The notes beneath the pieces are model-generated. The model was not told the origin of the DNA and made no database searches. It saw only the letters and a list, made by a program, of their open reading frames with translations. From the NCBI GenBank assembly GCA_026712905.1, contig JAPOPM010000098.1, positions 10,234-74,233 on the forward strand: 64,000 bases of DNA. The letters run 5' to 3'. The translations under genes and the position numbers were made by a program. Below are positions 11,835 to 44,396 of the stretch, one piece after another. Source of the stretch: Deltaproteobacteria bacterium (GTDB taxonomy: Bacteria > Desulfobacterota > Binatia > UBA9968 > JAJDTQ01). The first letter of the stretch is position 1. The number at the start of each line of letters is the position of its first letter.

Positions 11835-12012
11835 GTGGTGGGCGATGCGGCGGTGCCGGACGGGACTCCGGCCGATGCCTTGGTTTTAATGTACCAGAGG
11901 GGCGCCGCGACGGGCAAGGCGGGTATGGCGGGCCATCCTCGTCACAAGTGTTGCGTTCTGGTAGTGAACAACGGAAGAAGATGGGACCGCCGAGCCGAGA
12001 GGAGATATCCTA

Positions 12013-13101
12013 ATGCTTTTGATCGCCGACCCTGACGTGCAACAGGTCCTTCGGGTGGAGGACATCATCGACGACATGGAGCGGGCCTTTGCCGAGGAGG
12101 CGCGGGGGATCGCGGTCAACAAGCCGCGTACGCGCTACAAGGTGCCGCCAGACCCCGATTCCGACGGTTACATGGCAAACATCATTCCGGGTGCGGTGCC
12201 GAGTTCCGGGGTGGCGGCGCTGCGCTACGACTCCATGGTGGTGCGGGAGCGGATGGTGGAGGGGCTCAAGCGCATGGACTATCCGTATCCGGCGCGCCGG
12301 AGCTGGGGCTTCGTTTTGTTGTTCAACCTGGAGGACGCGGAACCACTCGCTATCATTCACGACTTCAGCCTGTCCGCGATCCGGGTGGGCGCCACCACCG
12401 GCGTGGCGACCCGGGCGCTGTCGCGGGAGGACAGCCGGGTGGTGGGGTTGTTCGGCTCGGGCAACGAGGCGGTGCAGAATCTGGCGGCGATCTGCGCGGT
12501 GCGGGACGTGCGCGAGGTGCGCGTATACAGCGTCACCAAGGAGCACCGGGAACGGTTCGCCATGGAGATGACGGGCCGGCTCGATATCCAGGTGCGCCCG
12601 GTGGACAACGCCCGGGCGGTGGTGGAAGGCGCGGACATCGTCATGTGCGCCACCAACGCCAGCACGCCGGTGTTCGATGGCGATTGGCTGGTGCCCGGCC
12701 AGTTGGTCACAACCATCGTCAACACCGACGGAGTGCATCGCCGCACCGAGGCGGATGCCACCACCTTCACGCGGGCGGATCTCGTCGTGCTCAACAACAA
12801 GGAGACCTCCCTGCACAACCAGCAGCGCGAGATGCTCGACCTCATCGACGAGGGCAAGATCGGCTGGGACAAGATCTGCGAGCTGGGGCAGGTTCTCATC
12901 GGCGAGAACCCCGGCCGCAAGAGCGCGGACGACATCATTTATTACAAGAGCAACACCGGGGTCGGCATACAGTTCGCCGCCGCGGGCGCGGTGATCTACG
13001 AGGAGTGCAAGAAGAGGGGGCTCGGCCGCGAGCTGCCCACCGAGTGGTTCGGCGCGGACCTGGGCGAGTGGCTGGACAAGGGCTACTCGCCGTCGCCGTA
13101 G
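12013..13101 (+). CDS. Ornithine cyclodeaminase/mu-crystallin family protein
   Basis: SAIRVGATTGVA, GLFGSGNEA, ADIVMCATNA..PVFDG.WL.PG, YKSNTGVGIQF. Confidence 0.9.
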   Translation: MLLIADPDVQQVLRVEDIIDDMERAFAEEARGIAVNKPRTRYKVPPDPDSDGYMANIIPGAVPSSGVAALRYDSMVVRERMVEGLKRMDYPYPARRSWGFVLLFNLEDAEPLAIIHDFSLSAIRVGATTGVATRALSREDSRVVGLFGSGNEAVQNLAAICAVRDVREVRVYSVTKEHRERFAMEMTGRLDIQVRPVDNARAVVEGADIVMCATNASTPVFDGDWLVPGQLVTTIVNTDGVHRRTEADATTFTRADLVVLNNKETSLHNQQREMLDLIDEGKIGWDKICELGQVLIGENPGRKSADDIIYYKSNTGVGIQFAAAGAVIYEECKKRGLGRELPTEWFGADLGEWLDKGYSPSP

Positions 13102-16114: not shown

Positions 16115-17230
16115 CTAAAAGAGGTCCGGGAACAAATCCTCCGGTATCTCTCGCCCTATTCCCTGGCTGACGGCGGCCTCGTAAACCTTGCCGGCGAGGG
16201 CGGCGAACTGCAGGCCGAAGCCGACGCTGTTGTTGAAGCAGGTGATCTGCTCGGAGTCGGTGCGGCCGGGGTGGCGATTGAGGAGGAGGTCGGGCAGGTC
16301 CGGGGTGTGGGCCCAGTCGATGTCCACGGCGTCGCCGGGCGGGTAGCCTTTGTCGATGTCCAGCAGAACCTGCTGGGGCAGGGGGCCCTTGTCGTTCTTG
16401 GCGACGAAGACCGTCGGCCCGAGGTTGTCCCTGGAGTTGACCGCGAGCACGTCGAAGCGGCCGAAGGTGTCCGGCGCGATCTCGCAGTGGCGCACCGAGC
16501 ACACGTACATGCCGGGTTCCAGCCATGCGGTCTGGATCACCGGCGTCAGGGCGTTCGTGGCGATGATGACGATGTCGCTGCCGCGCATGGCTTCCTCGGC
16601 GCTGTGGACGGCCGATACGTCCGGGCAATTCTCCCACCGCGGGTCCTCGACAAAACGCTTCCGGTGCTCCGGGTTGGGACTGAAAACCCGTATCGACTTG
16701 ATCCCGTCGGTAACGTTCAGCATGGCGTCCACGTGCGCCCCAGCCATGAAACCGGTCCCCAACACGCCCACGGTGGCGGCGTCGGGTTTGGCAAGATACC
16801 GAGCCGCGAGACCCGCCGCGGCACCTACCCGGAGATTGCGGATGTGCCCTTCGCTGACCATGGCCAGCAAGTCGCCGTTCTCCAGGCTGAAGAGGAAGAG
16901 CAAGCCGCGCGTGACGCTGTGGGACCGCCGGGTGCCCGGGGTCCGGTCGCGGCGAAAGCTGCCGTCGCGCTCCTGCCAGAAGAGTTTGTCGGTGAGGAAG
17001 CGGATGGCGGCGTACTTCTGCGTGGCCGCGGACATGGTCTTCAGGCTGTGGGCGCCGGGCAACGTGTTGCCGTTGCCGTCCACGTAGGAGTCGGGGGTGA
17101 GCAGGTCGATGCGGGGACTCGTGATGGCGGCTCCCGTGCCCAGGTCCCGATAGACTTCCTCGAGCACCGCCAGACTCGTGGGCATGTCGAGAAGCCGTTC
17201 GGCGTCGTGATGGTCGATTGCGAGTATCAT
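16115..17230 (-). CDS. Ornithine cyclodeaminase/mu-crystallin family protein
   Basis: NLRVGAAAGLAARYLA, VGVLGTGFMA, SDIVIIATNA, FNNSVGFGLQF; start MILAID with GGAG RBS. Confidence 0.88.
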   Translation of the reverse strand: MILAIDHHDAERLLDMPTSLAVLEEVYRDLGTGAAITSPRIDLLTPDSYVDGNGNTLPGAHSLKTMSAATQKYAAIRFLTDKLFWQERDGSFRRDRTPGTRRSHSVTRGLLFLFSLENGDLLAMVSEGHIRNLRVGAAAGLAARYLAKPDAATVGVLGTGFMAGAHVDAMLNVTDGIKSIRVFSPNPEHRKRFVEDPRWENCPDVSAVHSAEEAMRGSDIVIIATNALTPVIQTAWLEPGMYVCSVRHCEIAPDTFGRFDVLAVNSRDNLGPTVFVAKNDKGPLPQQVLLDIDKGYPPGDAVDIDWAHTPDLPDLLLNRHPGRTDSEQITCFNNSVGFGLQFAALAGKVYEAAVSQGIGREIPEDLFPDLF

Positions 17231-17523
17231 TGCCACTCCTCTGACGGAATGCCCGGTATGTCCGGCCGGGCCCCGAAACGCGCCGATGATCCCGGAATGG
17301 TCCGGCGTTGTCAAGGCCGTCGTGCGTCGCGCGGGCTCATGCGTCGGGAAGCGTTCCCTAATCATGCTAAAAACTCAATGACACATAGCCGAAACGATAT
17401 TCATGATTGCCTTCTTGCCCGCGTTTCCTCTATGATTCTCGGGTGCCTTTATGTATAATCGCTCCGCCAATGCCGTTGTGGCTGGCAAGAGGTGTCGTAG
17501 GCACTCACAAGAGGAGGTGTGAA

Positions 17524-18984: not shown

Positions 18985-20328
18985 ATGACGGCCGCGAGTT
19001 CACCGTATCCCGGCGCACCCGAAAGCCGGGAGATCGAGAACGCGCCGCCGGAACTCATCCGGAAACTCCAGGGAGAGCGCCTGGCCGCCCTGGTACAGCG
19101 CTCCTGGGACCACATCCCGTTCTACCGCGAGCGCTGGAAGGCGGCGGGCATCGAGCCCGGCGACATCCGCACGGCCGGCGACATTCACAAGCTCCCGGTC
19201 ATCCGCAAGAGCGACTTCGAGGACAGCCTCAGATTCCATCCGCCGTTCGGCGACTACCAGGGCGACTTCCCCGCCGTGCGGGTCCAGGCCAGCTCCGGCA
19301 CCTCGGGCAATCCCAAACCTTTCTTCTTCACGCGCAACGACTGGGACATCATCGCCCGGCTGTGGAGCCGGCGCTTCCATGCCCAGGGGGTGAGGGAAGG
19401 GGACATCCTCCAGATCGTGTTTGCCTATACGCTCTTCATCGTGGGGTTCACCGCCTCCGAGGGCGCCATGCACCTGGGCGCGCTGGTGGTGCCCACGGGC
19501 AGCGGCAGCGTCACCCCGAGCGAGCGGCAGGTGAAGATCGCCCGGGACTGGGGCGTCACCGTGCTCGCGGGAACCCCGTCCTACGTGCTCCATCTGGCCG
19601 ACGTGGCCGAAGGGCAGGGCTTCGACCTCCGGAAGGACTTCAACCTGCGGCGCACGATCCATACCTCCGAGACCATGACCGAGGCCGCGCGGCGGGCCAT
19701 CGAGAGCCGCTGGGGCGTGTCCGCCTACGACAACTTCGGCAGCGTGGAGACCGGCTCCCCCACCTTCGAGTGCGAGGAACGGAACGGTTACCACGTCAAC
19801 GAGGACGCCTACATCTTCGAGGTGCTGGACCCGGCCACCCACGAGCCGGTGCCGCCGGGCCGGGAGGGCGTGCTGGTGGTCACCTGCCTCTTCAAGGAGG
19901 CGGCGCCGGTGATCCGCTACAACATCGAGGACCTGTGCACCTTCATCGAGGACGACTGCGGCTGCGGGCGCACCTTCCGGCGCATCTCGAAGCTTCAGGG
20001 CCGGCTGAGCGACATGGTCAAGGTGAGCGGCATCCCGTTCTATCCCACCTCGGTGGAGACCGCCCTGGAGCGGCTGCCGCAGCTCACCCGCGAGTACCGG
20101 GTCACCGTGGACCGGGTGGGACAGCGGGACACGCTGACGGTGGAAGTGGAGATGCGTCCCGGCGCGGAGGCCGGCGACGGGATCAAGCGGCAACTGGAGC
20201 GGGAGCTCAAGGTGGCGACGAACCTCAGCATGGAAGCCATGCTCCTGTCGCCGGGCGAGCTTGGCCGTTCCCTCGGGGTCGAGAACCGCATCAAGGTGCG
20301 CCGGATTCGGGACCGGAGACCGGCCTGA
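18985..20328 (+). CDS. Phenylacetate--CoA ligase (PaaK-like) family
   Basis: SSGTSGNPK, YDNFGSVE, PVIRYNIED, GRLSDMVKVSG motifs. Confidence 0.9.
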   Translation: MTAASSPYPGAPESREIENAPPELIRKLQGERLAALVQRSWDHIPFYRERWKAAGIEPGDIRTAGDIHKLPVIRKSDFEDSLRFHPPFGDYQGDFPAVRVQASSGTSGNPKPFFFTRNDWDIIARLWSRRFHAQGVREGDILQIVFAYTLFIVGFTASEGAMHLGALVVPTGSGSVTPSERQVKIARDWGVTVLAGTPSYVLHLADVAEGQGFDLRKDFNLRRTIHTSETMTEAARRAIESRWGVSAYDNFGSVETGSPTFECEERNGYHVNEDAYIFEVLDPATHEPVPPGREGVLVVTCLFKEAAPVIRYNIEDLCTFIEDDCGCGRTFRRISKLQGRLSDMVKVSGIPFYPTSVETALERLPQLTREYRVTVDRVGQRDTLTVEVEMRPGAEAGDGIKRQLERELKVATNLSMEAMLLSPGELGRSLGVENRIKVRRIRDRRPA

Positions 20329-20361: not shown

Positions 20362-21519
20362 ATGTTTTCCGGTACGTTTCTAGTTGTGGAAGACATCGAA
20401 ACCGCCGCCGCAGCTCTATCCCTGGACGCCAAATGGCTCCAGGAGTTCGACGTCGTCGATCCCTTTAACGACGTCGCCTTGCGCGGCTTCCTCTCCCGCA
20501 GGCCGGACCACCGCTACGGGGCGCTGGCCGTCACTCACGTGAACGAGGCGCCCGCGCCGCAGGTGGTCTTCGCCACGCCCAAGCTGCACTACCCGTTCGA
20601 CCGCCAGGGCAAGTTCAACTTTCCGCCGATCCGGGAGATCGAGATCTTCGAAAAGTACGATGGCACCAACGTGCTGGCCTATGGCTACCGCGACTCGCAA
20701 GGGCGCCGTTACCGCACCTACAAGCTGCGCCTGTCCCCGGTCCTGCGCAACGGCCGCTTCGGTGACTTCCTGGACCTGTGGCGGGAGATGCTGGCGCGCT
20801 ATCCGGTCATTCCCGAGTTGGTGGACATCAATGGCTGCTCTCTGAGTTTCGAGCTCTACGGCAGCCGCAACACGCATCTCATACTCTACCAGGAGCCCTT
20901 GGACTGCGTATTGCTCTTCGGCGTCAGCGAGGATGGCACTCCCCGGTCGCCTTCCGGGCTGGATAGCCGGGGCGTTCCGCTGGCAACCCTCCACGGCACG
21001 CTGGCGGCGGGCAACGAGCCGGTGGCGGAGTACGGCGCGATCCGCGAACGGCTGGAGCGCGGCAACCGCCCGGTGGAAGACGGCAAGATCGCCGGGGTCG
21101 AGGGCGCGGTGTGGTACGTGCGCACGCGCGCCGGCGCCACCGTGCTGTTCAAGTGCAAGCCCGAGTCCGTCGAGGAGGTGCACTGGGTAGGCGGTATCAA
21201 CAAGCCCGCGGTCATCGCCACCTGCTGGAACCTGTTCGAGAGCCAGGACGTGCTGACCTATGAGACGCTGTATCCGCTCTTGGCGGAGGAGTATGGGGAC
21301 GACCAGATCGAAGGTTTCAGAACCTGCATCGACGAGTGCATTACCACGGTGCGCGAGGAGATGGAGTTCAAGAGCCGGGTGATGGACGAATACCGGCAGT
21401 TGGGGATCAAGTTGTCCGAGAACAAGGGGGACGTCATGCGCCGCCTGTCAACCCGGTTCAAGAAGCAGGAGATGAAGAAGGTCTTCACCCTGATCGCGCT
21501 CAACGAAAGTCGCCGTTAG
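20362..21519 (+). CDS. ATP-dependent RNA-ligase-like nucleotidyltransferase
   Basis: Motif I EKYDGTN, motif III FELYG, motif IV EGAVW, motif V LFKCK, followed by a helical C-terminal domain. Confidence 0.65.
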   Translation: MFSGTFLVVEDIETAAAALSLDAKWLQEFDVVDPFNDVALRGFLSRRPDHRYGALAVTHVNEAPAPQVVFATPKLHYPFDRQGKFNFPPIREIEIFEKYDGTNVLAYGYRDSQGRRYRTYKLRLSPVLRNGRFGDFLDLWREMLARYPVIPELVDINGCSLSFELYGSRNTHLILYQEPLDCVLLFGVSEDGTPRSPSGLDSRGVPLATLHGTLAAGNEPVAEYGAIRERLERGNRPVEDGKIAGVEGAVWYVRTRAGATVLFKCKPESVEEVHWVGGINKPAVIATCWNLFESQDVLTYETLYPLLAEEYGDDQIEGFRTCIDECITTVREEMEFKSRVMDEYRQLGIKLSENKGDVMRRLSTRFKKQEMKKVFTLIALNESRR

Positions 21520-21587: not shown

Positions 21588-21628
21588 GAAGCGTTTCATT
21601 CACTTGCGAAGGCGTTTCATTCACTTGC
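21588..21628. promoter_or_regulatory. Tandem ~20-bp direct repeat upstream of the ubiD-like gene
   Basis: GAAGCGTTTCATTCACTTGC-GAAGGCGTTTCATTCACTTGC, ~30 nt before ATG 21661. Confidence 0.5.
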
Positions 21629-21660: not shown

Positions 21661-23094
21661 ATGATTTTCGACGACAATCGCGCCTTCGTGGAGGCACTGC
21701 GGCGGTCCGGCGACCTGGTGGAAGTGGAGAAGGAAGTGAGCTGGGACCTGGAACTCGGCGCCATCAGCCGCCTGGCGTGTGAGAAGGACGGCCCGGCGGT
21801 TTGGTTCAAGCGCGTCACGGACTACGTGGACGACGTCTCGGTTTTCGTCAATCCGGTGGCCACGTGGCGGCGCATCGCCATCGCCCTGGGGCTCCCGCCC
21901 ACCGCCACGGTCCGGGAAATCTACGAAGCCTACGAGAAGGGGGAGGGCAACCCCATCGATCCGGTGGAGGTCGAGGAAGCCCCGTGCAAGCAGGTGGTCC
22001 GCAAGGGGCCGGACGCCAACCTGTTCGATCTGCCCACTCCCATGCTGCACGAGGGCGACGGCGGGCGTTACCTGGGCACCTGGGATCTGGTCATCTCCAA
22101 GGACGTGGACAGCGGCTGGGTCAACTGGGGCATGTACCGGTTCATGGTCTACGACGCACACCATCTGACCGGCTTCCCGCGCCCCACGAGCCACCTGGGC
22201 AAGGTGTTCCAGGAACACTACGCGGCCAAGGGAAAGCCCATGCCCTTGGCCATCGCCATCGGCACCGACCCTTTGTCGCACTTCGCCGCGGCCGCCACCT
22301 ATGCCCTGGGGGGCGACGAGGCCAGCCTGGCAGGCGGCTTGCGCGGGCGTCCGGTGGAGATGATCCGCTGCGAAACCAGTGACTTGCTGGTGCCGGCCCA
22401 TTCCGAGATCGTCATCGAGGGTGAGGTGCTGCCCGACCGGGTGGGGTTGGAAGGTCCCTATGGCGAGTACCCGGGCTACCGCACCGGCGAGATGGGCAAC
22501 GGCATCCTGTTTCGCACCACCGCCATCACCCACCGGGAGAAGCCCGTGCTCACGGTGGACGCCACCGGCTACAAGGACGACAGCTCCACGGTGACCGCCT
22601 TGTCCGGCGCCCTGGCCATCAAGCGCCGGCTGGAGCGCCACGGCGTGCCGGTGCGGGACGTTTACGTGCCGCCGGAGGGGGCCGTGCATCTGGCGGTGAT
22701 GAGCGTGGACTACGGCGGCCAGGAGGTGGCCCGGAAGGTGCTCCAGGTGCTGACTTCGCGCCGGGCGCTGCTGTCGAAACTCTTCCTGGTGGACACCGAC
22801 ACCGACGTGTACGATATCGGCAAGGTGCTGCATGCCTTCTCCACCAAGTGCCACCCGGCCAACGGCATCCACGTGATCCACTACGAAGGCCGGGCCAACA
22901 CGCTGACGCCGTGCTACAGCCAGGCGGAGCGGGCGGCCCAGAAGGGGGCCACGGTACTTTACGACTGCACCTGGCCCGGCGAGTGGTCGCGGGAGTGGGA
23001 GACGCCGGTGAAGGCCACCCTGGATTCGATCTTCTCGGAAGAGGTGCGGGAGAAGGTGCTGAAGAACTGGAGCGACTATGGCTTCAAGCAGTGA
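21661..23094 (+). CDS. UbiD-family prFMN-dependent (de)carboxylase
   Basis: EKEVSWDLELGAI, DGGRYLG, NWGMYRFM, IAIGTDP, EGPYGEYPGY motifs; C-terminal W.DYG. Confidence 0.93.
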   Translation: MIFDDNRAFVEALRRSGDLVEVEKEVSWDLELGAISRLACEKDGPAVWFKRVTDYVDDVSVFVNPVATWRRIAIALGLPPTATVREIYEAYEKGEGNPIDPVEVEEAPCKQVVRKGPDANLFDLPTPMLHEGDGGRYLGTWDLVISKDVDSGWVNWGMYRFMVYDAHHLTGFPRPTSHLGKVFQEHYAAKGKPMPLAIAIGTDPLSHFAAAATYALGGDEASLAGGLRGRPVEMIRCETSDLLVPAHSEIVIEGEVLPDRVGLEGPYGEYPGYRTGEMGNGILFRTTAITHREKPVLTVDATGYKDDSSTVTALSGALAIKRRLERHGVPVRDVYVPPEGAVHLAVMSVDYGGQEVARKVLQVLTSRRALLSKLFLVDTDTDVYDIGKVLHAFSTKCHPANGIHVIHYEGRANTLTPCYSQAERAAQKGATVLYDCTWPGEWSREWETPVKATLDSIFSEEVREKVLKNWSDYGFKQ

Positions 23095-23389
23095 GGCGCC
23101 GGCGTGGGACACCTTCGTGCGCCGGCCGGGAGACGTGCGCTGCGGCGTGGAGACGCCGCTGGTTCTCAGGGACCTGACGCCGGGGCGGGCAAAGTACGGG
23201 CTGAGGCACGTGCTGGGCGTCGTTCATGAGAATGGCGGTCCGGGCGACCCGCTCACGGTGCGCACGGTGGTCGGGATCGCGCTGCCCGTTGCCTATACCG
23301 TGGAGATCGTCCGCGACCTGCCGCAAGAGATCGCAGGGACTCCGTACCAGGACTTCTATGCGGCACTGCAGCGGGCGGCGGAGCTGTAG
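23078..23389 (+). CDS. Phenylphosphate carboxylase gamma-subunit-like small protein
   Basis: WDTFV....V..G.E..L.LRDLTPG..KY..RHV resembles the recalled Thauera PpcG pattern (WEVFV...LPEG.EL.L.VRTLNPG.KKY); overlaps the ubiD-like stop. Confidence 0.6.
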   Translation: MASSSEAPAWDTFVRRPGDVRCGVETPLVLRDLTPGRAKYGLRHVLGVVHENGGPGDPLTVRTVVGIALPVAYTVEIVRDLPQEIAGTPYQDFYAALQRAAEL

Positions 23390-23419
23390 CGACCCGACAC
23401 CAGAGGAGGGGATGGCGAG

Positions 23420-25345
23420 ATGATAACGGTATTGGCGTCTCTCATGGGTTCCCATCGGCGGCGCACGCTGCCCTCGGCTTCGACGGCGTGGGTGCTGGCT
23501 GGCCTGATGGTCGCGGCGGGGTTGTCCAACCCTCGGTTCGCCGCCGCGCTGGCGCTGCCGGCCAACGAGAGCGGCGTCACCGGGTACTTCGACACCACCG
23601 TTTCCATGGGCGCGGCCATGCGGGCGTCCGGGCGCGATGACCGCCTGTTCAGCCTGGCCAGCGGCGGCAAGGCATACACCTTCAACGGTGATGACGGCAA
23701 CCTCAACTTCGACCGCGGGGATCTCGTCTCCCTCAACACCAAGGTCAATCACGAGTTGCAGCTCAACATGGAGAATCCGGGCGCGGAGTTGAGCCTGTTC
23801 GGGCGAGTGCTGTATTTCTACGATCACGCGGTGGCGGATGGCGACACCGAGCGCACGGCCTTGTCCGCCGCCGCCAAGGGGCACGCCGGACGAGACTTCC
23901 AGTTGCTCGACGCCTATGTGGCCGGCGACTTCGATGCCGGCGCCGTGCCGGTCTCGCTTCGATTGGGCAACCAGGTCATGAGCTGGGGCGAAAGCGTCTT
24001 CCTTCGCGGCGGCATCAACTCCATCAACCCGGCCGATGTCGCGAAGCTCCGAGTCGCCGGTGCCGAGTTGCGGGACGTGCTCGTGCCGGTCCCCGCGGCC
24101 AACGTCAAGGTGGGCATCGGCGACAGCTTCTCCCTGGAAGGCTTCTACCAGTTCCGTTGGGAGCACTCCGAAATCGAGGCTAAGGGTACGTTCTTCTCCG
24201 CCAGCGACATCGTGGGCCCCGGGGGGGATACGGTCCATCTCGGGCTCGGCCGGCCCGGACGAGGGGACGACCGAGACGGCGCACCCGACCCGGCTTGTCC
24301 CAGCCGCGCCAATCCCGCGGGGCTCTGCTCTCGCGTGGCCCGCGCCGCCGACCGCGATGCCGGCCATGAGGGCCAGTTCGGTGTGGCGCTGCGCTACTTC
24401 GCGGCGGCGTTGAACGATTCGGAGTTCGGACTGTATTACGCGCGCATCCACAGCCGTCTGCCGCTGGTGTCCGTTACCGCGGGCGACCTGGCGAGACGGA
24501 CGGCTCCCGGGGGCTTTGTCGGCTCCATCCGGTATCTCCGGGAGTTCCCGGAGGACATCGACCTCATGGGCGCGAGTTTCAACGGCGAACTGGGTGGCAG
24601 CGGAGTCACCTTGCAGGCCGAGGTCGCCTATCGCCGGAACCAGCCGCTCCAGGTCGACAACGCAGAGCTCATATACTCCGCGTTGAGTCCGCTGCGGAGG
24701 CTCGCCGCGCAGGCGGCCATGGCGCAAGGCCCCGCGCGACAACTGTTGGCGGGCCTCGCGCGCGCCGGGCAGTTGTTCAGCATGAGCCAGACCGGTCCGG
24801 CGGACCCGGGGCAGGAGATTCCGGGCTTTCGCCGCAAGGACGTGGTGCAGGGTTCTGTAGCCGTGTCCAAGGCGTTGGCGCCCATGCTGGGGGCCGACGG
24901 ATGGATCGTGCTGGCCGAGGCCGGATTTACCCAGATCCAGGACATGGAGGACAAGTCGGAGCTCCGTTACGACGGCACGGGCACATGGACCAGTGGCAAT
25001 CCCGCCTTCACGGCCGGCGGAGTCCAGCCGGTAACCCAAGTGACCGGCTTCGCCGATCCGTTCTCATGGGGTTACCGGGCCGTGCTGCGGGGCGCCTACA
25101 GCAACGCCCTCGGACCGGTGAACCTTGCGCCGCAGGTCGCCTTCGCCCACGACGTCAACGGCACGACACCGAGGCCCATCGGCAACTTCGTGGAAGGACG
25201 CCAGACGGTGACGCTGTCGGTGGGGGCAAGCTACCTGCTGTCTTGGCGGGCGCAACTGGCGTACACGCAGTTCTTCGGCGCGGGCCAGCACAACATGCTG
25301 GCCGATCGTGACTTCGTGTCGTTCACGGTGAGCTATTCCTTCTGA
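23420..25345 (+). CDS. DUF1302 family outer-membrane protein
   Basis: GYFDTTVSMG..R, NGDDGNLNFD.GD, LLDAY, RLGNQV.SWGES.F..GIN, C-terminal DRDFVSFTVSYSF. Confidence 0.93.
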   Translation: MITVLASLMGSHRRRTLPSASTAWVLAGLMVAAGLSNPRFAAALALPANESGVTGYFDTTVSMGAAMRASGRDDRLFSLASGGKAYTFNGDDGNLNFDRGDLVSLNTKVNHELQLNMENPGAELSLFGRVLYFYDHAVADGDTERTALSAAAKGHAGRDFQLLDAYVAGDFDAGAVPVSLRLGNQVMSWGESVFLRGGINSINPADVAKLRVAGAELRDVLVPVPAANVKVGIGDSFSLEGFYQFRWEHSEIEAKGTFFSASDIVGPGGDTVHLGLGRPGRGDDRDGAPDPACPSRANPAGLCSRVARAADRDAGHEGQFGVALRYFAAALNDSEFGLYYARIHSRLPLVSVTAGDLARRTAPGGFVGSIRYLREFPEDIDLMGASFNGELGGSGVTLQAEVAYRRNQPLQVDNAELIYSALSPLRRLAAQAAMAQGPARQLLAGLARAGQLFSMSQTGPADPGQEIPGFRRKDVVQGSVAVSKALAPMLGADGWIVLAEAGFTQIQDMEDKSELRYDGTGTWTSGNPAFTAGGVQPVTQVTGFADPFSWGYRAVLRGAYSNALGPVNLAPQVAFAHDVNGTTPRPIGNFVEGRQTVTLSVGASYLLSWRAQLAYTQFFGAGQHNMLADRDFVSFTVSYSF

Positions 25346-25384
25346 CGGAGCGGGATTGGATCACATGAAGCGGGTTTGGATCAC

Positions 25385-26749
25385 ATGAATACGCGACGGA
25401 GCATCTGGGCGGCCGCGTTGGTATGGGCGCTGATCGCGGCGGTACCGGCGGCGGCGAAGGTCACGGCCGAAGAAGCGGGCCGGCTGGGAGCGGAGTTGAC
25501 GCCCTTGGGCGCCGAAAAGGCGGGCAACGAGGCCGGCACCATTCCCGCATGGGAGGGCGGCATCACGAAACCGCCGGCCGGCTATCGTGCGGGAAAGCGC
25601 CTCGTCGATCCGTTCCCGGACGACAAGCCGCTCTTCACCATCACCGCGGAGAATTACAAACGATACGAGGCGAACCTTACGCCGGGTCAGATCGCGGTGC
25701 TCCGGCGCTACCCCGAGACCTACCGGATGCCGGTGTACCGGGCGCGGCGCACGGCGTCGCTGCCACCGCGCATCTACGAGCGCACCATCGGCAACGCCGT
25801 CACCGCGATGCTCACTGACGATGGCAACGGCGTGGTGAACGCCGCCGAGGGCATCCCGTTCCCGATCCCCAAGAACGGGCTTGAGGCCATCTGGAACCAC
25901 TTGCTGCGCTACCGCGGCAAGTCCGTGCGCGTCACCAGCGGTCAGGCCGCGCCCACGGCCGACGGCTCCTACGTGGTGGTGCAAATCCGCGAGCAGGTGT
26001 TGTGGGGTTACCAGCAGCCCGGCGCAACCACGGAGAACATCGACAACAAGCTCGCCTACTTCCTCCAGGAGGTGCTGTCCCCGGCAAGGTTGGCGGGTTC
26101 GCTGATCCTGGTCCACGACACCCTGAACCAGGCGGCGGAGCCGCGCAAGGCGTGGGTCTACAATCCCGGGCAGCGTCGCGTCCGGCGCGCGGCCAACGTC
26201 GGCTATGACAATCCCGGCACGGGCTCCGACGGCCAGCGCACCAACGATCAGGCCGACATGTACAACGGCGCGCCGGACCGTTACGACTGGACGCTGGTGG
26301 GGAAACGGGAGATCTACATCCCTTACAACAGCTACAAGCTCGCGAGCGGTGGCCATGGCTTCGACGACGTCCTGAAGCCGGGCCACATCAACCCGGACCT
26401 GACCCGCTACGAGCGCCACCGGGTGTGGGTGGTGGAGGCGCGGTTGAAGCAAGGCACCCGGCACATCTTTCCCCGGCGCACGTTCTATCTCGACGAGGAC
26501 AGTTGGCAGATCGCGGTGGTGGACCAGTACGATGCCCGCGGCGAGATGTGGCGGCTGAGCCAGGCCTATATCATCAACCACTACCAGGTGCCGGTGCTGT
26601 GGAGCACCGGCATGTCGATCTACGACCTCCAGAACGGACGCTATCTCGTCAAGGGTCTGACTAACGAATACGAGCCGCCGCGTTTCGACCTGGAGCTGAA
26701 CCCGAACCAGTTCACGCCGCGGGCGCTGCGGCGCCGGGGCCGCCGTTGA
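25385..26749 (+). CDS. DUF1329 family periplasmic protein
   Basis: LTPLGAEKAGN..GTIPAW.GG, PFPIPKNG.E..WNH..RYRG, AW.YNPGQRRVRRA, F.P.ALRRRG. Confidence 0.95.
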   Translation: MNTRRSIWAAALVWALIAAVPAAAKVTAEEAGRLGAELTPLGAEKAGNEAGTIPAWEGGITKPPAGYRAGKRLVDPFPDDKPLFTITAENYKRYEANLTPGQIAVLRRYPETYRMPVYRARRTASLPPRIYERTIGNAVTAMLTDDGNGVVNAAEGIPFPIPKNGLEAIWNHLLRYRGKSVRVTSGQAAPTADGSYVVVQIREQVLWGYQQPGATTENIDNKLAYFLQEVLSPARLAGSLILVHDTLNQAAEPRKAWVYNPGQRRVRRAANVGYDNPGTGSDGQRTNDQADMYNGAPDRYDWTLVGKREIYIPYNSYKLASGGHGFDDVLKPGHINPDLTRYERHRVWVVEARLKQGTRHIFPRRTFYLDEDSWQIAVVDQYDARGEMWRLSQAYIINHYQVPVLWSTGMSIYDLQNGRYLVKGLTNEYEPPRFDLELNPNQFTPRALRRRGRR

Positions 26750-31820: not shown

Positions 31821-32051
31821 ACTAGCCGGAATGTCCTTTGTTCTCGATGCCGGGAATGTTCGGTTCGTAATGAGTCTTGACGCATTCATGCCGATCCGGC
31901 GGGTGTTGCATGGCCGGCGCAGGTTGACGGTTCGTCGCCGGCCGGTCTACGTTGAGCACGATGGCGCGCGGCCGTCGCAAGGGGGCGCGGACCGCGCAAT
32001 GGAAGAACCGAATCGAGGGACGGCAACCGGCTGTCCCTGGGGAACCGCATC

Positions 32052-33131
32052 ATGCCGGACGACGACGTAAGGGTCCTGACCAACGACGACATGGAGGGTC
32101 TCCTCGAAATGGGGGAGATCGTCGAGGCCGTGGAAACGGCCTACGTCGAGCTGGGCCGGAAGATCGCGGAGGGGATGCCGCGGCGCCGGCTGCACATGCC
32201 GCTGGAGGGGCTGGAACGAACCTGGTACTGGCTGAACGTCATTCCCGGCGCCGTGCCTGCGTTCGATACGGCGGCGGTGCGTCTGGACTCGTCGCAGATC
32301 CGCTTCCGCAACGTCGGCGGCGGCAGCCGCATGGAGTTCCCCGGTGATTTCTCGGGCTTCGTCCTGCTCTTCAGCATCAAGGAGCGCGCGCTCAAGGGCA
32401 TCGTCCACGACCACTACCTGTCGGCGCTGCGCGTGGGCGCCACCACGGGCGTGGCGGCGAAGTACCTGGCGCGGCCCGATGCGTCCGTGCTGGGCATCTT
32501 CGGCAGCGGCACCCAGGCCCATGGGCAGGTGTCGGCGCTGTGCGCCGTGCGGGACATCCAGGAGGTCAAGGTGTTCTCCCTCCGCGAAGAGAACCGCAAA
32601 CGCTTCGCCAAGGAAGTGACCGAGCGCTACGGCGTGAAGGCGCGGGCGGTGCGGCGAGCGGAGGACGTGGTGCACGACTCGGACATCGTGGTCACGGCCA
32701 CCAACTCCGGCGATCCGGTGTTCGACGGTGACTTGCTGGAGCCGGGCACCCATCTGGTGTCCATGATCGGCCCGGACTGGTTCGACAAGCGCCGGGAGCT
32801 GGACGACGCGGCCATCGAGAACTGCGACCTCATCGTGGTGAACTCCAAGGAGCAGGTGGAGATCGACGAGCAGCCGGAGCTGATGTCGCCCATCCGCAAG
32901 GGCATCATCGGCTGGGAGCAGATCCACGAGCTGGGCGACCTCGTCATCGGCACCATCGCCGGCCGGACCACAGCCTCCGAGATCACCCATCACAACAACA
33001 ACTGCGGCATGGGCGTTCAGTTCGCCGCCATCGGCCACCTGGTGCTGGAAGAGGCGAAGAAGCGCAACCTCGGCACGCGGCTGCCGGCGGACCTGTTCAT
33101 GACCCGGCGCACCGACGTGTCCTCTCCCTGA
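32052..33131 (+). CDS. Ornithine cyclodeaminase/mu-crystallin family protein
   Basis: SALRVGATTGVAAKYLA, GIFGSGTQA, SDIVVTATN; paralog of 12013-13101. Confidence 0.9.
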   Translation: MPDDDVRVLTNDDMEGLLEMGEIVEAVETAYVELGRKIAEGMPRRRLHMPLEGLERTWYWLNVIPGAVPAFDTAAVRLDSSQIRFRNVGGGSRMEFPGDFSGFVLLFSIKERALKGIVHDHYLSALRVGATTGVAAKYLARPDASVLGIFGSGTQAHGQVSALCAVRDIQEVKVFSLREENRKRFAKEVTERYGVKARAVRRAEDVVHDSDIVVTATNSGDPVFDGDLLEPGTHLVSMIGPDWFDKRRELDDAAIENCDLIVVNSKEQVEIDEQPELMSPIRKGIIGWEQIHELGDLVIGTIAGRTTASEITHHNNNCGMGVQFAAIGHLVLEEAKKRNLGTRLPADLFMTRRTDVSSP

Positions 33132-37221: not shown

Positions 37222-38526
37222 CTACGAGGCGATGTTCACGCGGTCCTGCACCGCCTCGACCCACGCGGCATCGTTGGGCAGCCGCACCGAGGTGGCGCGG
37301 ACGTGGTGCAGCTTCGGGTCCAGTCCCGGCGGGTCGGCCTGTCCCTCCCGCAGCATCCTGGCGGAGTCGATGAGACACTTGCGCACCTTGATGATGGCGG
37401 TGTCGCTGGTGCCCAGGCGTTCCCGGGTGCGGTCGAAGATGGGGCCCTGGCTCTCGGTCATGGCGCGGTCCTGCATGCCGAAACCGGGAATGCCGCAGAA
37501 CATGCGCGTGCGGTGTGCCTCCCAGTCCATGCCGTAGTCGTCGTCGGGGGTCGCCTCGGGGCGGACGTCGCCGTAGGGGCCGTTGATGGGCGGCCCGAAG
37601 CGCGTGATGTGGGAGCTGAAGCCGTCGGCCAGGGACGCCAGCTCTTCTTCCCGCAGCGGGCGCGTGGGGTGCCAGGTGATGGTCCAGTTGATGAGGTGCT
37701 CGTCGTCCGCCGGCACCCACGCGTGCGAGTGCAGGATCGGATCCTCGTCCTGGGGCGGCGGCATGGTGTAGAAGGGCATGAGGAACTGCGTGATGCGCCA
37801 GTAGTAATGGTCGTCGGGTGCATTCCGCCGGGCTCCGATCATGACCCCGTAGTCCGTGTCCACGACCTCGAAGCGCGGGCTCCGGTCCGTGGTCCCCACG
37901 GCGGTGTCCACGCCGAAGCCGGCCTTCTCGAGGCTCTCCAGGGATGTGCGGTCGGTGGCATCCAGCGGCGCGTGCAGGAACGAGATGTGGCTGGAGTCGA
38001 TGCCGCCTTCCAGCGCCTGAAAGTAGTTGTTGCTCTGGTAGTACTTCGAGATGAAGCGCTGGTTGTCCGCCAGCCCCAGCCACTCGAAGTCCGGCAGGTC
38101 CGTCATGTGCGCGGGATCGCCCATGAACGCCCACACCACGCCGCCGCGCTCGCGGCAGGGATAGGCGGGATGCCGCACGGCGTGCTTGAAGTCCGTTTCC
38201 GGGGACTCGTTGGGCATCTCCAGACAGCGCCCGTCGAGCCCGTACTTCCAGCCGTGGTAGCAGCAGCGCAACCCGTCCGGCTCCACGCGCCCGTAGTAGA
38301 GCGACACGCGCCGGTGCGAGCACGTCTCGCCCAGCAATCCGGCCTCGCCGCGAGTGGTGCGAAACGCCACCATGCTCTCGCCCAGTATGCGGACCCTCTT
38401 GGTCCGGCCGCCGGCCTCCAGCTCGCTCGAAAGGACCACCGGCACCCAATAGCGCCGCATCAGCGCGCCCATGGGGGTGCCTGGGCCGACTTGTGTCAGG
38501 ATGTCGTTGTCTTCTCTGGTCAGCAT
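37222..38526 (-). CDS. Rieske non-heme iron oxygenase alpha subunit (phthalate 4,5-dioxygenase/LigX-like)
   Basis: VGPGTPMGALMRRYW, CSHR..SL..CCYHGWK (Rieske), DSSHISFLH (mononuclear Fe), QDRAMTESQG. Confidence 0.93.
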   Translation of the reverse strand: MLTREDNDILTQVGPGTPMGALMRRYWVPVVLSSELEAGGRTKRVRILGESMVAFRTTRGEAGLLGETCSHRRVSLYYGRVEPDGLRCCYHGWKYGLDGRCLEMPNESPETDFKHAVRHPAYPCRERGGVVWAFMGDPAHMTDLPDFEWLGLADNQRFISKYYQSNNYFQALEGGIDSSHISFLHAPLDATDRTSLESLEKAGFGVDTAVGTTDRSPRFEVVDTDYGVMIGARRNAPDDHYYWRITQFLMPFYTMPPPQDEDPILHSHAWVPADDEHLINWTITWHPTRPLREEELASLADGFSSHITRFGPPINGPYGDVRPEATPDDDYGMDWEAHRTRMFCGIPGFGMQDRAMTESQGPIFDRTRERLGTSDTAIIKVRKCLIDSARMLREGQADPPGLDPKLHHVRATSVRLPNDAAWVEAVQDRVNIAS

Positions 38527-39115
38527 GCTCGTCCTCGATGCCAGTGTAGTGCGCGGAGCCTAAAGAACTACAATCGGTATTACGTTTGTGTCAAGTCTGC
38601 CGTTCGTCGCGCTGATAGGGCACGACAAAGGGTGGCGTAACGGTCAATCGGGTGTCGAGATCTTGGGTCGGAGGCGCTTGCTGAGCCCCCTGCGTTCGGT
38701 GAACGCTACCTCGGTCCAGAAAACTCGGGTGCTGAAGGTGATGTGCATCAAGGCGAATACACCGTCGACGACCGAGCGCCCACGGTCGAGGCAGTAATGC
38801 AATTGTCCCAGGTCGAACCAGGCGACGCGTAGCATCCGAGATCGACCGGGACCGTCCGAGTGGAGCGCGAGCTTGGCGATATCGTTCATGCCGGGGCGCT
38901 TGGTCATTCTGGGGACGGGGTCGGTTCAACATCGAGGACGTTTCGGCTGGGGAGAATCTCCTACGCAAGGAAAATCAAGTCGTTTCATCGGCCACGAAAT
39001 CCCGTTATCATCCACCTGTGGTTTTAATAGGAGAGGCTTGTCAGTGCACCAGGCGGGGTGATTGCTGTGCTTCAAGCCTGACGGCGGCGGCCGGGCCAAC
39101 GGCAGGGATGCGCGC

Positions 39116-41214: not shown

Positions 41215-42825
41215 TTACGAAGGCGAATCCGCCGGATCGTCCTTGACGAGATCGATCTCCCACGACAGGTAGCGTTCCATGTCCTCACGGGACTTGCCCA
41301 GGGCACCGGTCCACACGCTGTGACCGAAGTCGGCCTGCGCGTCCTCGGTGGACACGCCCGTGCCTTCCAGACCGTCTTCGAGGTTGCGGCCCGTGCTCTC
41401 CCACGCCCGAGTCCCGCCTTCGAGCACCTGGACCCTGGCATACCCGAGTTCCCGCAGAGTCCCCGCCGCCAGCGTGGAACGGATCGCGTTGTCGCACACC
41501 ATCACCAGCGCCGCGTCCTTGTCCGGCGCGGTGGCCTCGATGTCGAGTTCCAGGCGTCCGCGGGGAAGCCAGCGCGTTCCGGGAATATGGGCGAATCCGT
41601 ATTCGCCGATGCTGCGTACGTCGAGGGCGAGACCGGATGCGTCCAGGTGCGCCTGGAGACCGGCGGCGTCGGTGAAGCGGGTCCGGGCGTGCGCTTCATC
41701 GAGTCCGAAGACGGCAAGCTCCGGCACGCCCTGTTCAAGGGGCAGGCCGGCGTCCCGCCACCGCTGCAGGCCGCCCTCCAGGACCGACACGTCGCGGAAG
41801 CCGAGCTGCTGCAGCAGCGACGCCGCCCACACCGGCCGCAGGTCGTCGTCGGAGATCAGGAACACCGGGGCGGCGCGCACGGCGAGGAAGTTCTCATGGG
41901 CCAGGGCCATCTGCCCCAGCGGGAGCGAGATGGCGCGGGGAACGTGGCCGGCCTGGAACTCTTCCGGCAAGCGCACGTCCAGGAGATAGAAGGCTTGGTC
42001 GGAGTCGTAGACGCCGCGAAACGTTTCCAGCGTGCTCCGGCGCACCGCCGCGGTCGAGGCGAGGGCGTCGGTTGCCCGTTGGATGCGCGCGACACGTGTT
42101 GCCGAGGCCGGCGCGGGCACCTCCCGGCCCGGACCCTCGGCGATGTCGTGCCCGGACAGGAACCAGCCCATGACGCCGTTCTCCAAGGCGTAGACATTGT
42201 CGAAGCCGTTGTCGTGCAGCAGTTTGGCACCGAGGATGCCGCGGGTGCGGCCGGCGCAACTCACCACCAGCGTGGTGCCGTCCCTGAGCGGCAGACGCGG
42301 CGCGTCCACCAGCAGATTGCCGCCGGGAATGTGGTAGGTGTCGGGAACGTGGCCGCGCAGGTACTCTTCGCGCGAGCGCACGTCCACCACCACCAAGTCG
42401 TCCCCGGCCGCGCGCCGGCGGGCCAGTTCCGGCGCGTTCATGTGGGTGACGTCGCCGCCGTGCGCCACGCGCTCGCCGTACTCCTTGCCGTGCACGCCCC
42501 ATCCCGAACGCACCGGCAGCCCTTGCCGTTGCCACGCCTCGACCCCGCCGGCCAGTACCCTGACGTCGCCGTAGCCCATGCGTTCCAGGGTCTCGGCGGC
42601 TAGCGCGCTACGGTTCCCGTCGTCGCACAACACCACCACCGGAACACGTGTGTCCGGCACCATCACGGGCAGCCGCAGCTCCAGTGTACCCCGGTTTACG
42701 GGACTGGTCCCGGCGATCTGCGCGCGGGCGAACTCGCCGCGTTCGCGTACGTCGATGCAGGCGTAGGGTTCATCCGAAGCGAGCAAAGCCTGCAAAATCG
42801 AGGGGTCGATAGTGGAATGGCTCAA
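41215..42825 (-). CDS. Four-domain rhodanese/sulfurtransferase
   Basis: Four IDVRE/VDVRS/LDVRL/LDVRS..G.HI repeats with active-site loops CDDGNRS, CAGRTRG, SDDDLRP, CDNAIRS; TTG start. Confidence 0.9.
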   Translation of the reverse strand: MSHSTIDPSILQALLASDEPYACIDVRERGEFARAQIAGTSPVNRGTLELRLPVMVPDTRVPVVVLCDDGNRSALAAETLERMGYGDVRVLAGGVEAWQRQGLPVRSGWGVHGKEYGERVAHGGDVTHMNAPELARRRAAGDDLVVVDVRSREEYLRGHVPDTYHIPGGNLLVDAPRLPLRDGTTLVVSCAGRTRGILGAKLLHDNGFDNVYALENGVMGWFLSGHDIAEGPGREVPAPASATRVARIQRATDALASTAAVRRSTLETFRGVYDSDQAFYLLDVRLPEEFQAGHVPRAISLPLGQMALAHENFLAVRAAPVFLISDDDLRPVWAASLLQQLGFRDVSVLEGGLQRWRDAGLPLEQGVPELAVFGLDEAHARTRFTDAAGLQAHLDASGLALDVRSIGEYGFAHIPGTRWLPRGRLELDIEATAPDKDAALVMVCDNAIRSTLAAGTLRELGYARVQVLEGGTRAWESTGRNLEDGLEGTGVSTEDAQADFGHSVWTGALGKSREDMERYLSWEIDLVKDDPADSPS

Positions 42826-42843
42826 GGGTCTCCTCCCGTTTGG

Positions 42844-44025: not shown

Positions 44026-44396
44026 GACGTTCCTCCTGGCCCGTGTGGGCGGCCTGGCATCCGGCTAGTGTCGTGTCCCGTAAATTCCTGGCATAAGTTG
44101 CGCAGGATTTTTCGTCGTCGGCACGTGAGCTATCACGCCGGCTCCGGAAGGCGGTTTGGCAGCGGATATATCAACAGCCGCGGGGTGAGTAAAGCGGGCG
44201 AGGGACGAAATCCGCGGCGGACCAGGAGAAGACCAAGGGTACTTCGCCTTGTTTGACAGGGATGGCGTAATCGGACTAATATCGGCTCGCCTGTCTCGAA
44301 TTGTCAGGCTGGCGGAGTTTTCATCGCTGATGCGATGCTCCATACGCGGTTTCATGAAGCCGCGGAGAAACGGATCGAACCCGGAGATTCTCATTT

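Follow-up and report, generated by a model that had tools for sequence, protein, structure and literature searches.

To our knowledge, the proposed carboxylases of benzene and naphthalene have so far resisted purification. A putative anaerobic benzene carboxylase cluster, abcD-abcA-bzlA-ubiX, is described from Peptococcaceae clone BF and its relatives, with AbcD listed under the gene ppcC (PMC5852087), and the naphthalene cluster includes a PpcA-like protein, N47_K27540, and a gamma-like one, N47_K27530 (PMC6849830). VdcD is an integral small subunit (PMC10865409), and the gene of IPCL, a PaaK-family ligase, has a UbiD decarboxylase gene and that of a small hypothetical protein as its neighbours (PMC9516798).

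We analysed a window of 64,000 nucleotides, meaning the whole stretch of DNA examined, from a Candidatus Binatia genome. Its forward strand encodes a PaaK-family aryl-acid CoA ligase of 447 aa (18985..20328), a predicted PpcA-like, UbiD-family prFMN-dependent (de)carboxylase of 477 aa (21661..23094) and a long-form gamma-type small subunit of 103 aa (23078..23389). Likened to AbcA, AbcD and BzlA by their described arrangement, these genes would form a module of the same kind: both combine one PpcA-like UbiD with a small PpcC/gamma-type protein and, next to them, an aryl-acid CoA ligase, and both are without a second UbiD, a delta subunit and phenylphosphate synthase. They differ in the ligase, which is PaaK-type here and a benzoate-CoA ligase in the description of BzlA; in UbiX, whose gene is here on another contig and not in the cluster; in the gamma protein, here a long form that carries a C-terminal helix; and in the host, which is probably an aerobic member of the Binatia without class I benzoyl-CoA reductase. 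The profile-search matches included no proteins named AbcA or AbcD. Comparable with the abcD-abcA-bzlA-ubiX order is a relative found in this analysis, on one further contig beyond the Binatia locus set, with the order MarR-UbiD-gamma-ligase.

The naphthalene clusters of N47 and NaphS2 likewise start with a PpcA-like UbiD gene followed by a gamma-like gene, and have an acid product that passes to a CoA ligase (PMC6849830, PMC12016498), but in N47 the cluster extends to four UbiD-like genes in all, to MRP/ParA ATPases and to more subunits in a ~750 kDa complex, none of which is found here. A preliminary description of the window had put forward a "minimal" enzyme of one UbiD plus gamma; this design has precedents in the proposed benzene carboxylase AbcA/AbcD, accompanied by BzlA, and in the two leading genes of the naphthalene carboxylase cluster (PMC5852087, PMC6849830). 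The isophthalate cluster of Syntrophorhabdus aromaticivorans shares a PaaK-family ligase, a UbiD enzyme and a small protein with our locus (PMC9516798), although its decarboxylase, IPCD, is reported as kin of phenolic acid decarboxylase subunit C, not of PpcA (PMC8269228).

The UbiD protein and its relation to phenylphosphate carboxylase

The UbiD protein carries the UbiD_N, UbiD and UbiD_C domains (PF20695, PF01977 and PF20696, all over cut-off) and scores 266 bits on TIGR00148 (cut-off 245). Its best NCBIfam model is phenyl_P_alpha (TIGR02723), at 369.7 bits against an equivalog cut-off of 564.6, whereas a true PpcA from locus L058 reaches 749.7 bits; judged by these profile scores, the window protein classifies as PpcA-like and not as PpcA. 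The closest structures are Fdc1 and HudA (~240 bits), with phthaloyl-CoA decarboxylase at 60 bits. In the alignment, N168, R173, H191, E233, E277 and E282 of Fdc1 correspond to N155, R160, H178, E220, E264 and E269, the numbering of the Fdc1 catalytic Glu-Arg-Glu and Mn/prFMN residues being, we take it, that of Payne et al. 2015. The catalytic and metal/prFMN-binding residues are intact, and 40-42 of the 42 clade members conserve them.

UbiD proteins whose genes are followed directly by a gamma gene group in one clade (SH-aLRT 100) with bona fide PpcA inside, and single-UbiD-plus-gamma units make up a subclade (SH-aLRT 99), three of them with an adjacent ligase. The phylogeny places the window UbiD in this gamma-partnered clade together with true PpcA; none of the host's 31 other full-length UbiD paralogues falls inside it. 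The host genome encodes 33 UbiD paralogues and a single UbiX (C200:43959-44504; TIGR00421, 236 bits). UbiX is thus outside the window, as first noted, but it is not missing from the organism. Our literature searches turned up no account of this very large expansion of UbiD, of which Binatia genomes carry 16-69 copies each while the host genome has a single UbiX.

With Thauera aromatica and Aromatoleum PpcABCD, the locus shares PpcA as its best model, a clade with true PpcA and a homologous gamma protein. It differs in having one UbiD, a gamma protein of 103 aa instead of ~84 aa, and a host genome without the delta phosphatase and phenylphosphate synthase. As first described, the window holds only one UbiD, and a second was not found in 36 of the 37 related loci, the remaining one (L050) having an unrelated paralogue upstream. 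Searching the whole genome for the delta subunit gave at best a TIGR02726 match of 154 bits (cut-off 282), located on contig C129; this protein is probably a housekeeping KdsC-type HAD phosphatase. A genome-wide search for the synthase PpsAB returned only one PPDK_N protein, a 970-aa ORF on contig C25 that lies 20 kb from the nearest UbiD. The preliminary description had allowed that the genome might hold a complete ppc/pps cluster; it is absent, the genome having one gamma-like gene, one PPDK-type protein and no delta subunit over cut-off. Since the second UbiD, the delta subunit and the synthase are lacking and the TIGR02723 cut-off is not reached, phenylphosphate carboxylase was ruled out.

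The gamma-type partner

Counted from its ATG, the gamma ORF overlaps the end of UbiD, stop codon included, by 17 nt. This overlap is kept in 28 of the 28 loci examined, with GGAG (25 loci) or GGAA (3) close upstream of the ATG. The ORF has 56 homologues at 54-88% identity, and changes among 21 orthologues fall mostly on third codon positions (5217, vs 2571 on first and 1971 on second). The homologues, the third-position bias and the kept overlap with its GGAG/GGAA show that the small ORF is a real gene. The motifs quoted for it earlier (WDTFV, LRDLTPG, KY and RHV) do occur in its translation and coincide with the best-conserved positions of the gamma superfamily, at which Y40 and G66 never vary and L33, G36, K39, L59 and R62 hardly do.

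Taken alone, the protein has no Pfam match and scores only 14 bits on TIGR02725 (E=0.034; cut-off 135.6). PF09662 is nevertheless matched by 12 of 20 close homologues. Searching 1.84 billion proteins with a profile of the family yielded 67 cluster representatives. An alignment of 51 of these matches and the window protein comprised 52 sequences, of which 44 match PF09662, and hhalign relates the profile to canonical 84-aa gamma proteins with a probability of 98.8% (E=1.2e-16). The proposed homology to the PpcG-type gamma subunit is therefore borne out at the family level by the PF09662 matches and the hhalign result, and the window protein classifies, by profile comparison, as a divergent member of the Phenyl_P_gamma superfamily, not an equivalog. 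The gene is single-copy in the host and, across the genus, in every one of the 17 genomes with a completeness of at least 90%. Its AlphaFold model (pLDDT 84) has five strands and an extra C-terminal helix. A fold search of the PDB gave no match for it, LpdD included, and sequence and fold searches found no solved gamma structure.

We know of no role assigned to gamma, even in Thauera, which leaves room for the idea that it acts as a maturation factor or prFMN chaperone for its UbiD rather than as a subunit of a complex. LpdD sets a precedent for small UbiD-linked prFMNH2 chaperones (PMC10865409), and 33 UbiD paralogues compete for the product of one UbiX in this host. Against such a role, the gamma model resembles neither LpdD nor any other PDB entry in fold, and a strict 1:1 translational coupling suits a stoichiometric subunit. 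In addition, Schuehle and Fuchs are said to have found in 2004 that the 10-kDa gamma is needed, along with alpha and beta, for CO2 exchange by the phenylphosphate carboxylase core. We regard the chaperone role as improbable. In the subunit reading that we prefer, UbiX, encoded elsewhere, would make the prenylated FMN that is loaded into UbiD, gamma would be translationally coupled to UbiD, and the two would most likely assemble into a heteromeric enzyme.

The conserved trio and its optional neighbours

The PaaK-like ligase had been placed 1.3 kb upstream, and its stop indeed lies 1333 nt before the UbiD start. It has the Pfam AMP-binding and AMP-binding_C_2 domains but scores only 289-307 bits on NCBIfam PaaK models, far under their cut-offs of 646-700; its closest solved structure is phenylacetate-CoA ligase 4R1L (256 bits). 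It is 45-49% identical to the ligases of two modules on contigs outside the Binatia locus set (L056 and L059b) and 36% identical to the host's second PaaK paralogue. UbiD and gamma are adjacent in the 37 related Binatia loci, wherever upstream DNA is covered, and a PaaK-like ligase stands upstream of UbiD in 34 of the 36 loci with upstream DNA covered. The trio also occurs beyond this set, in L056 as UbiD, gamma, PaaK-like ligase and an OYE/FadH-type reductase, and L059 holds two modules. The proposed tie between one UbiD plus gamma and a CoA ligase thus extends across the Binatia loci and to unrelated metagenome contigs. The conserved unit is an aryl-acid CoA ligase, a PpcA-like UbiD and a gamma-type partner, and the trio forms a core set of genes in a Binatia genus.

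A biosynthetic role like that in bagremycin and ferroverdin formation, where the UbiD decarboxylase BagN/FevL works with the PaaK-like synthetase BagE/FevW, is suggested by matches to the corresponding NCBIfam "exception" models (BagN_FevL, 273 bits; BagE_FevW, 152 bits). These scores, however, are far under the cut-offs of 1000 and 800 and lower than those on the PpcA and PaaK models, the surroundings show no conservation of further biosynthetic genes, and the neighbours are transporters and catabolic enzymes, so that we give this role almost no credence.

Between ligase and UbiD lies a gene for a 385-aa protein with a KYDG nucleotidyltransferase/ligase-like motif (20362..21519, forward strand), which had no match in Pfam, NCBIfam or PDB searches. 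It is single-copy within the genome and a variable insertion outside the core: it occupies this position in 14 of the 37 related loci and, mapped on the UbiD tree, was gained or lost at least 5 times. In the intergenic DNA upstream of UbiD, a 21-bp unit is tandemly duplicated (21593..21628, forward strand); its 15-mer GTTTCATTCACTTGC is present in two exact copies against a chance expectation of 0.06, in one copy in the closest relative (L014) and in none of 56 other loci.

Downstream, and in a single run with UbiD and the 103-aa ORF as the preliminary description had it, come genes for a DUF1302 outer-membrane beta-barrel protein (23420..25345, forward strand; PF06980, 525 bits) and a DUF1329 LolA-like periplasmic protein (25376..26749, forward strand, with a probable start at the ATG at 25385; PF07044, 511 bits, plus LolA_like). 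Both N-termini look signal-peptide-like by eye, and OppC/OppB permeases on the opposite strand follow DUF1329. The same two families, with signal-peptide-like N-termini, occur in AmeABCD of Castellaniella defragrans and in PP_0765/0766 with PP_2018/2019 of Pseudomonas putida, but the window pair is an orphan: neither a YCF48/BNR protein nor an RND transporter adjoins it. Such partners do exist in the genome, on contig C172, where a second DUF1302/DUF1329 pair is followed by PSII_BNR (84 bits) and MMPL (103 bits) in a canonical four-gene cassette.

The pair had been read as an importer feeding the enzyme, which would make the locus a six-gene pathway with a dedicated outer-membrane importer. 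Gaps of 30 nt on either side of DUF1302, the shared strand and the position of the pair, directly after gamma in all 10 loci that have it, speak for this reading, as do its relatives: AmeAB is implicated in the handling of hydrophobic substrates, namely monoterpenes (PMC6394551), and PP_0765/0766 with Tween 20 and fatty esters (bioRxiv 10.1101/2020.07.04.188060; PMC10866462). DUF1329 is always found together with DUF1302 in the related loci. Yet the pair is missing from 27 of 37 loci, including all those outside the genus-level clade of the UbiD tree, along which it was gained or lost at least 4 times; a Haem_oxygenas_2/TENA-like gene fills the same slot in 9 other loci; and the YCF48/RND partners are on C172. 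A dedicated importer is therefore unlikely. The pair is an optional neighbour and no conserved feeder of the module, and both it and the KYDG protein are lineage-specific additions dispensable to the module.

Substrate, direction and host context

Two Rieske oxygenases are encoded inside the window, a genome search for class I benzoyl-CoA reductase components (HGD-D/BcrBC-type) found none, and the host has only a BoxB-like and a PaaA/C-like protein. The host looks aerobic, which argues against carboxylation of an unactivated arene. The window contains TctC and TctA genes, and 47 TctC receptors are encoded in the genome as a whole. In distant Binatia loci the module has as neighbours a TAXI/TRAP carboxylate transporter, together with Amidohydro_2 proteins and enzymes of the thiamine-diphosphate type; in locus L042 such a transporter is directly upstream. 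The neighbours in the distant loci and the 47 TctC receptors point to acid uptake and decarboxylation.

We consider it reasonably probable that the three genes encode a UbiD-gamma aromatic (de)carboxylase and its CoA ligase, acting on a substrate other than phenylphosphate. UbiD-gamma would reversibly add or remove a ring carboxyl on an aromatic or heteroaromatic compound, and the ligase would turn the aromatic acid into a CoA thioester for further breakdown. As to direction, we lean tentatively to carboxylation followed by ATP-driven CoA ligation that would pull the equilibrium, because the only studied relatives are the phenylphosphate, benzene and naphthalene carboxylases. The reverse course, in which acid uptake and ligation precede decarboxylation, is nearly as likely.

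One form of that course would be a ligase-first aryl-CoA decarboxylase, in which an aromatic di- or tricarboxylate, once imported, is activated by the PaaK-like ligase and the resulting aryl-CoA loses a carboxyl group to UbiD-gamma. We know of no gamma-family subunit described for isophthalyl-CoA or phthaloyl-CoA decarboxylases, which counts against it, as do the position of the window UbiD inside the PpcA clade, its great distance from phthaloyl-CoA decarboxylase and the kinship of IPCD with phenolic acid decarboxylase subunit C (PMC8269228). Still, the gene order of ligase, UbiD and gamma, the transporter directly upstream in L042, the TctC/TctA genes with their paralogues and the aerobic context would all suit it, and it follows the logic of isophthalate-CoA ligase/isophthalyl-CoA decarboxylase and phthaloyl-CoA decarboxylase, with IPCL encoded beside a UbiD and a small protein (PMC9516798). 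On balance we find it somewhat unlikely.

Returning to carboxylation, a bolder version can be imagined for this probably aerobic or facultative member of the Binatia, in which UbiD-gamma carboxylates an unactivated hydrophobic (hetero)arene, an orphan DUF1302/DUF1329 channel of the outer membrane delivers it in this genus by borrowing the YCF48/RND proteins of C172, ATP-dependent CoA ligation provides the pull and a Box/Paa-like, oxygen-dependent epoxidase route follows. We think this quite improbable; if true, it would take benzene- and naphthalene-type carboxylation beyond strict anaerobes.

Our analysis corrects the notion of DUF1302/DUF1329 as a pathway member and defines a compact subfamily, in which one PpcA-like UbiD is combined with a long-form gamma and with a PaaK-type ligase, and which is also present on metagenome contigs outside the Binatia set. 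Coming from a host that is probably oxygen-tolerant, such an enzyme of two proteins could serve as a tractable model of gamma function, and could also model how PpcA-type UbiD enzymes work and reversible aromatic carboxylation in biocatalysis.

A three-gene unit conserved in Binatia loci

The locus lies on contig C49 (10234-74233) of a 4.8 Mb genome that is 98.9% complete. On the forward strand, a PaaK-family AMP-binding ligase (18985-20328) is followed by a 385-aa protein with a KYDG motif (20362-21519), a UbiD with three UbiD domains (21661-23094), a 103-aa ORF that overlaps the UbiD stop by 17 nt (gamma, 23078-23389) and, by family match as for the ligase, DUF1302 (23420-25345) and DUF1329 (25376-26749); OppC, OppB and SBP_bac_5 genes lie downstream on the opposite strand. 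The coordinates, motifs and 1.3-kb ligase distance of the preliminary description were all correct on re-examination. The KYDG protein is single-copy in the genome and had no match in Pfam, NCBIfam or PDB, its KYDG resembling motif I of ligases and nucleotidyltransferases. A tandem repeat with a 21-bp unit (15-mer GTTTCATTCACTTGC, two exact copies) occupies 21593-21628, inside the 141-nt intergenic stretch that precedes UbiD; the unit occurs once in the closest relative (L014) and is absent from the other loci compared, and its duplication is possibly an operator or a recent slip.

Scanning species-representative genomes recovered 37 related loci, all Binatia-type, including some whose records are labelled Deltaproteobacteria or Syntrophobacterales; by these loci the host, too, is a Candidatus Binatia. 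Their genes were called with a crude GC3-based caller, and counts of accessory genes are phmmer matches. UbiD adjoins gamma in each locus with upstream DNA present; of these 36 loci, 34 have a PaaK-like ligase immediately upstream of the pair. The KYDG gene sits between ligase and UbiD in 14/37 loci and DUF1302/DUF1329 follow gamma in only 10/37; on the UbiD-orthologue tree, the KYDG gene requires at least five state changes and the DUF pair, limited to a genus-level clade, at least four. Directly after gamma, nine loci (8327-9076 in L020, and eight others) carry a Haem_oxygenas_2/TENA-PqqC-like gene, which never occurs together with the DUF pair in one locus, indicating that the slot downstream of the module is variable. 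Gamma is single-copy in the window's genome. Of the genomes of the genus with a completeness of at least 90%, all 17 have it once, whereas elsewhere in the order its occurrence is scattered (3/12 genomes). Locus counts, trees and the single-copy distribution of gamma thus define the conserved unit as ligase, UbiD and gamma. A supposed deletion scar of DUF1302 in another related locus (L027) gave an unconvincing alignment, and we make no claim on it.

In published systems DUF1302 is an outer-membrane barrel and DUF1329 a LolA-like periplasmic protein, and hydrophobic substrates are handled by the two together with a YCF48/BNR protein and an RND transporter (PMC6394551; bioRxiv 10.1101/2020.07.04.188060; PMC10866462). 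Both proteins in the window have N-termini that, judged by eye, look like signal peptides. Since a complete cassette (DUF1302, DUF1329, PSII_BNR, MMPL/RND) is found on contig C172 (11253-18406), adjoining GlmU-like, GlmS-like and FtsJ genes taken to be housekeeping, the window pair is an additional, orphan copy, which may dock in trans to the YCF48/RND machinery of C172 and may be co-transcribed with UbiD-gamma. Because the pair is so patchily distributed, the UbiD-gamma enzyme is independent of it, and the earlier view of the pair as an importer feeding the enzyme is not sustained.

A divergent gamma-family protein

Searched by itself, the 103-aa protein reached only E = 0.034 against TIGR02725 and had no Pfam match, so the assignment could be settled only with family profiles. 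Among 56 homologues (54-88% identity), the more distant ones bear PF09662 and the name phenylphosphate carboxylase subunit gamma; PF09662 was matched by 12 of 20 aligned homologues. Searched against 1.84 billion proteins, a profile built solely from the Binatia family recovered 67 cluster representatives, and 44 of 52 aligned sequences (51 of these representatives plus the window protein) matched PF09662 at E ≤ 1e-3. Compared profile to profile with 13 canonical gamma proteins, mostly of 84 aa, the family scored 98.8% probability (E = 1.2e-16, 74 columns). AbcD was not found by name among the profile matches. This family-level evidence is strong and marks the ORF as a genuine but divergent member of the gamma family, in agreement with the preliminary description. 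That gamma is coding is further indicated by an excess of third-position codon changes (5217 vs 2571 and 1971), by the 17-nt overlap, kept in 28/28 loci examined, and by the GGAG (25 loci) or GGAA (three) just 5' of its ATG.

The predicted fold (pLDDT 84) consists of five strands and, after them, a C-terminal helix. Foldseek returned no PDB match at E ≤ 0.001, suggesting that gamma is unlike LpdD or any other solved chain, and a sequence search of the PDB gave chance matches only (E > 0.5). The helix motif PG-PY-D----AL is common to the single-UbiD modules (the window, the L052 contig and the L056 and both L059 modules from outside the Binatia set) and is missing from the canonical 84-aa gamma. 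A VdcD-type small subunit was rejected as an identity, gamma having no Cys motif. Given its translational coupling to UbiD and what is known of the Thauera enzyme, we infer that gamma is a stoichiometric subunit; a chaperone role like that of LpdD (PMC10865409) is possible.

A PpcA-like UbiD outside any canonical ppc/pps cluster

The best NCBIfam model for the window UbiD is phenyl_P_alpha, at 369.7 bits and below the 564.6 cut-off. In the alignment to Aspergillus niger Fdc1, residues N168, R173, H191, E233, E277 and E282 correspond to N155, R160, H178, E220, E264 and E269, and each of the six is conserved in 40-42 of the 42 members of the clade. We placed the window UbiD in a tree with 30 paralogues from its genome (>400 aa) and outside UbiDs, using, as for the orthologue tree, a quick method with SH-aLRT as the only support. 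The UbiDs directly upstream of gamma form one clade (SH-aLRT 100), which includes the bona fide PpcA of L058 (749.7 bits) and none of the genome's 30 other paralogues in the tree. Within it, a subclade (SH-aLRT 99) groups the single-UbiD-plus-gamma sequences, the window UbiD among them; its members with an adjoining ligase are L056, L059 and the Binatia loci, the L052 contig being too short to show one.

Several neighbourhoods of more distant gamma-family proteins, outside the Binatia locus set, repeat this arrangement. L056 (874-6047) encodes UbiD, gamma and a PaaK-like ligase, then a 655-aa OYE/FadH-type Fe-S flavoenzyme with the same domain architecture as 2-naphthoyl-CoA reductases. The metagenome contig L059 (3774-10187) carries two neighbouring modules whose gene orders are opposed, namely a LysR gene, UbiD, gamma and PaaK-like ligase, then PaaK-like ligase, UbiD and gamma in the Binatia order, together with an MFS transporter. 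A further contig has MarR, UbiD, gamma, an AMP-binding ligase and a CoA transferase, and L054 and L058 show the classical arrangement of an 84-aa gamma flanked by two UbiDs. At 45-49% identity, the window ligase is nearer to its counterparts in L056 and the second L059 module than to the second PaaK paralogue of its own genome (36%). This greater closeness of the module ligases to one another suggests that the three genes travel together.

A delta subunit is absent: the genome's best match, probably to a HAD phosphatase with a housekeeping role, reached 154 bits where the cut-off is 282. No second gamma was found in the genome, and a single PPDK-type protein means that there is no phenylphosphate synthase pair. 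With these gaps, the window enzyme is not a phenylphosphate carboxylase; nor does its UbiD belong to a complete ppc/pps cluster, as a search for a canonical one elsewhere in the genome found none. UbiX, described earlier as missing from the 64-kb window, is indeed absent there and present in one genomic copy, on contig C200 (43959-44504). This single UbiX stands against 33-34 UbiD paralogues, and 30 related genomes from its genus and order have 16-69 UbiD matches each, a very large expansion. We found no literature report linking Binatota/Binatia to UbiD enzymes or to an aromatic decarboxylase.

The nearest studied systems are the phenylphosphate, benzene and naphthalene carboxylases, in which a PpcA-type UbiD works with a gamma-type protein to make an aromatic acid that is then captured by a CoA ligase. 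The proposed benzene carboxylase comprises AbcA/AbcD with BzlA and UbiX, AbcD being listed under the gene ppcC (PMC5852087), and the naphthalene carboxylase cluster begins with PpcA-like and then gamma-like genes (PMC6849830, PMC12016498). By gene arrangement, the window module is of this known AbcAD/BzlA design. No enzyme of the subclade that combines one UbiD with a long-form gamma and a PaaK-like ligase is known to have been characterised.

Reaction direction and aromatic catabolism

Rieske oxygenases are encoded in the window at 37222-38559 and 42844-44064, one with a LigXa-type C-terminal domain and the second adjoining a four-domain rhodanese (41215-42843), and TctC and TctA genes are also present. 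The window also has three ornithine-cyclodeaminase (OCD) genes (11968-13101, 16115-17365, 31956-33131), which share synteny with the module in the close relatives. UbiD and OCD were rejected as a recurrent pair: only 4/33 UbiDs lie <6 kb from an OCD gene, no link beyond chance (~8% of the genome expected), and OCD (32 OCD_Mu_crystall paralogues) and TctC (47) are simply abundant. Elsewhere, a BoxB-like protein (contig C135, 831-1775) scores 187 bits, short of the 499 cut-off, and a PaaA/PaaC-like di-iron protein is encoded on C153 (3770-4483).

That ligase, UbiD and gamma form a functional module is, in our judgement, reasonably probable, and we commit at this level because homology favours carboxylation first and ecology favours ligation first. 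Within the module, the PpcA-type UbiD and gamma would form an aromatic acid that the CoA ligase then traps, an order for which we would claim slightly less than even probability; membership of the gamma-partnered PpcA clade, the presence of gamma and a score of only 60 bits to phthaloyl-CoA decarboxylase, rejected as an identity for this UbiD, all favour it. The same three observations speak against the opposite order, in which an acid would be taken up, ligated and then decarboxylated by UbiD. This order, which we hold to be almost as probable as the first, has a precedent in isophthalate degradation, where a PaaK-family ligase precedes a UbiD aryl-CoA decarboxylase (PMC9516798), and it is consistent with the two Rieske oxygenases, the 47 TctC receptors and the BoxB-like and PaaA/C-like proteins, as well as with the absence of a class I benzoyl-CoA reductase from the genome. 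In distant Binatia loci, moreover, a TAXI/TRAP transporter, Amidohydro_2 proteins and thiamine-diphosphate enzymes adjoin the module.

For the host, the Rieske oxygenases and TctC/TctA suggest that aromatic compounds, possibly aromatic acids from lignin, are catabolised aerobically. The BoxB-like and PaaA/PaaC-like proteins are candidate aryl-CoA epoxidases, which could act on the product of the module ligase.
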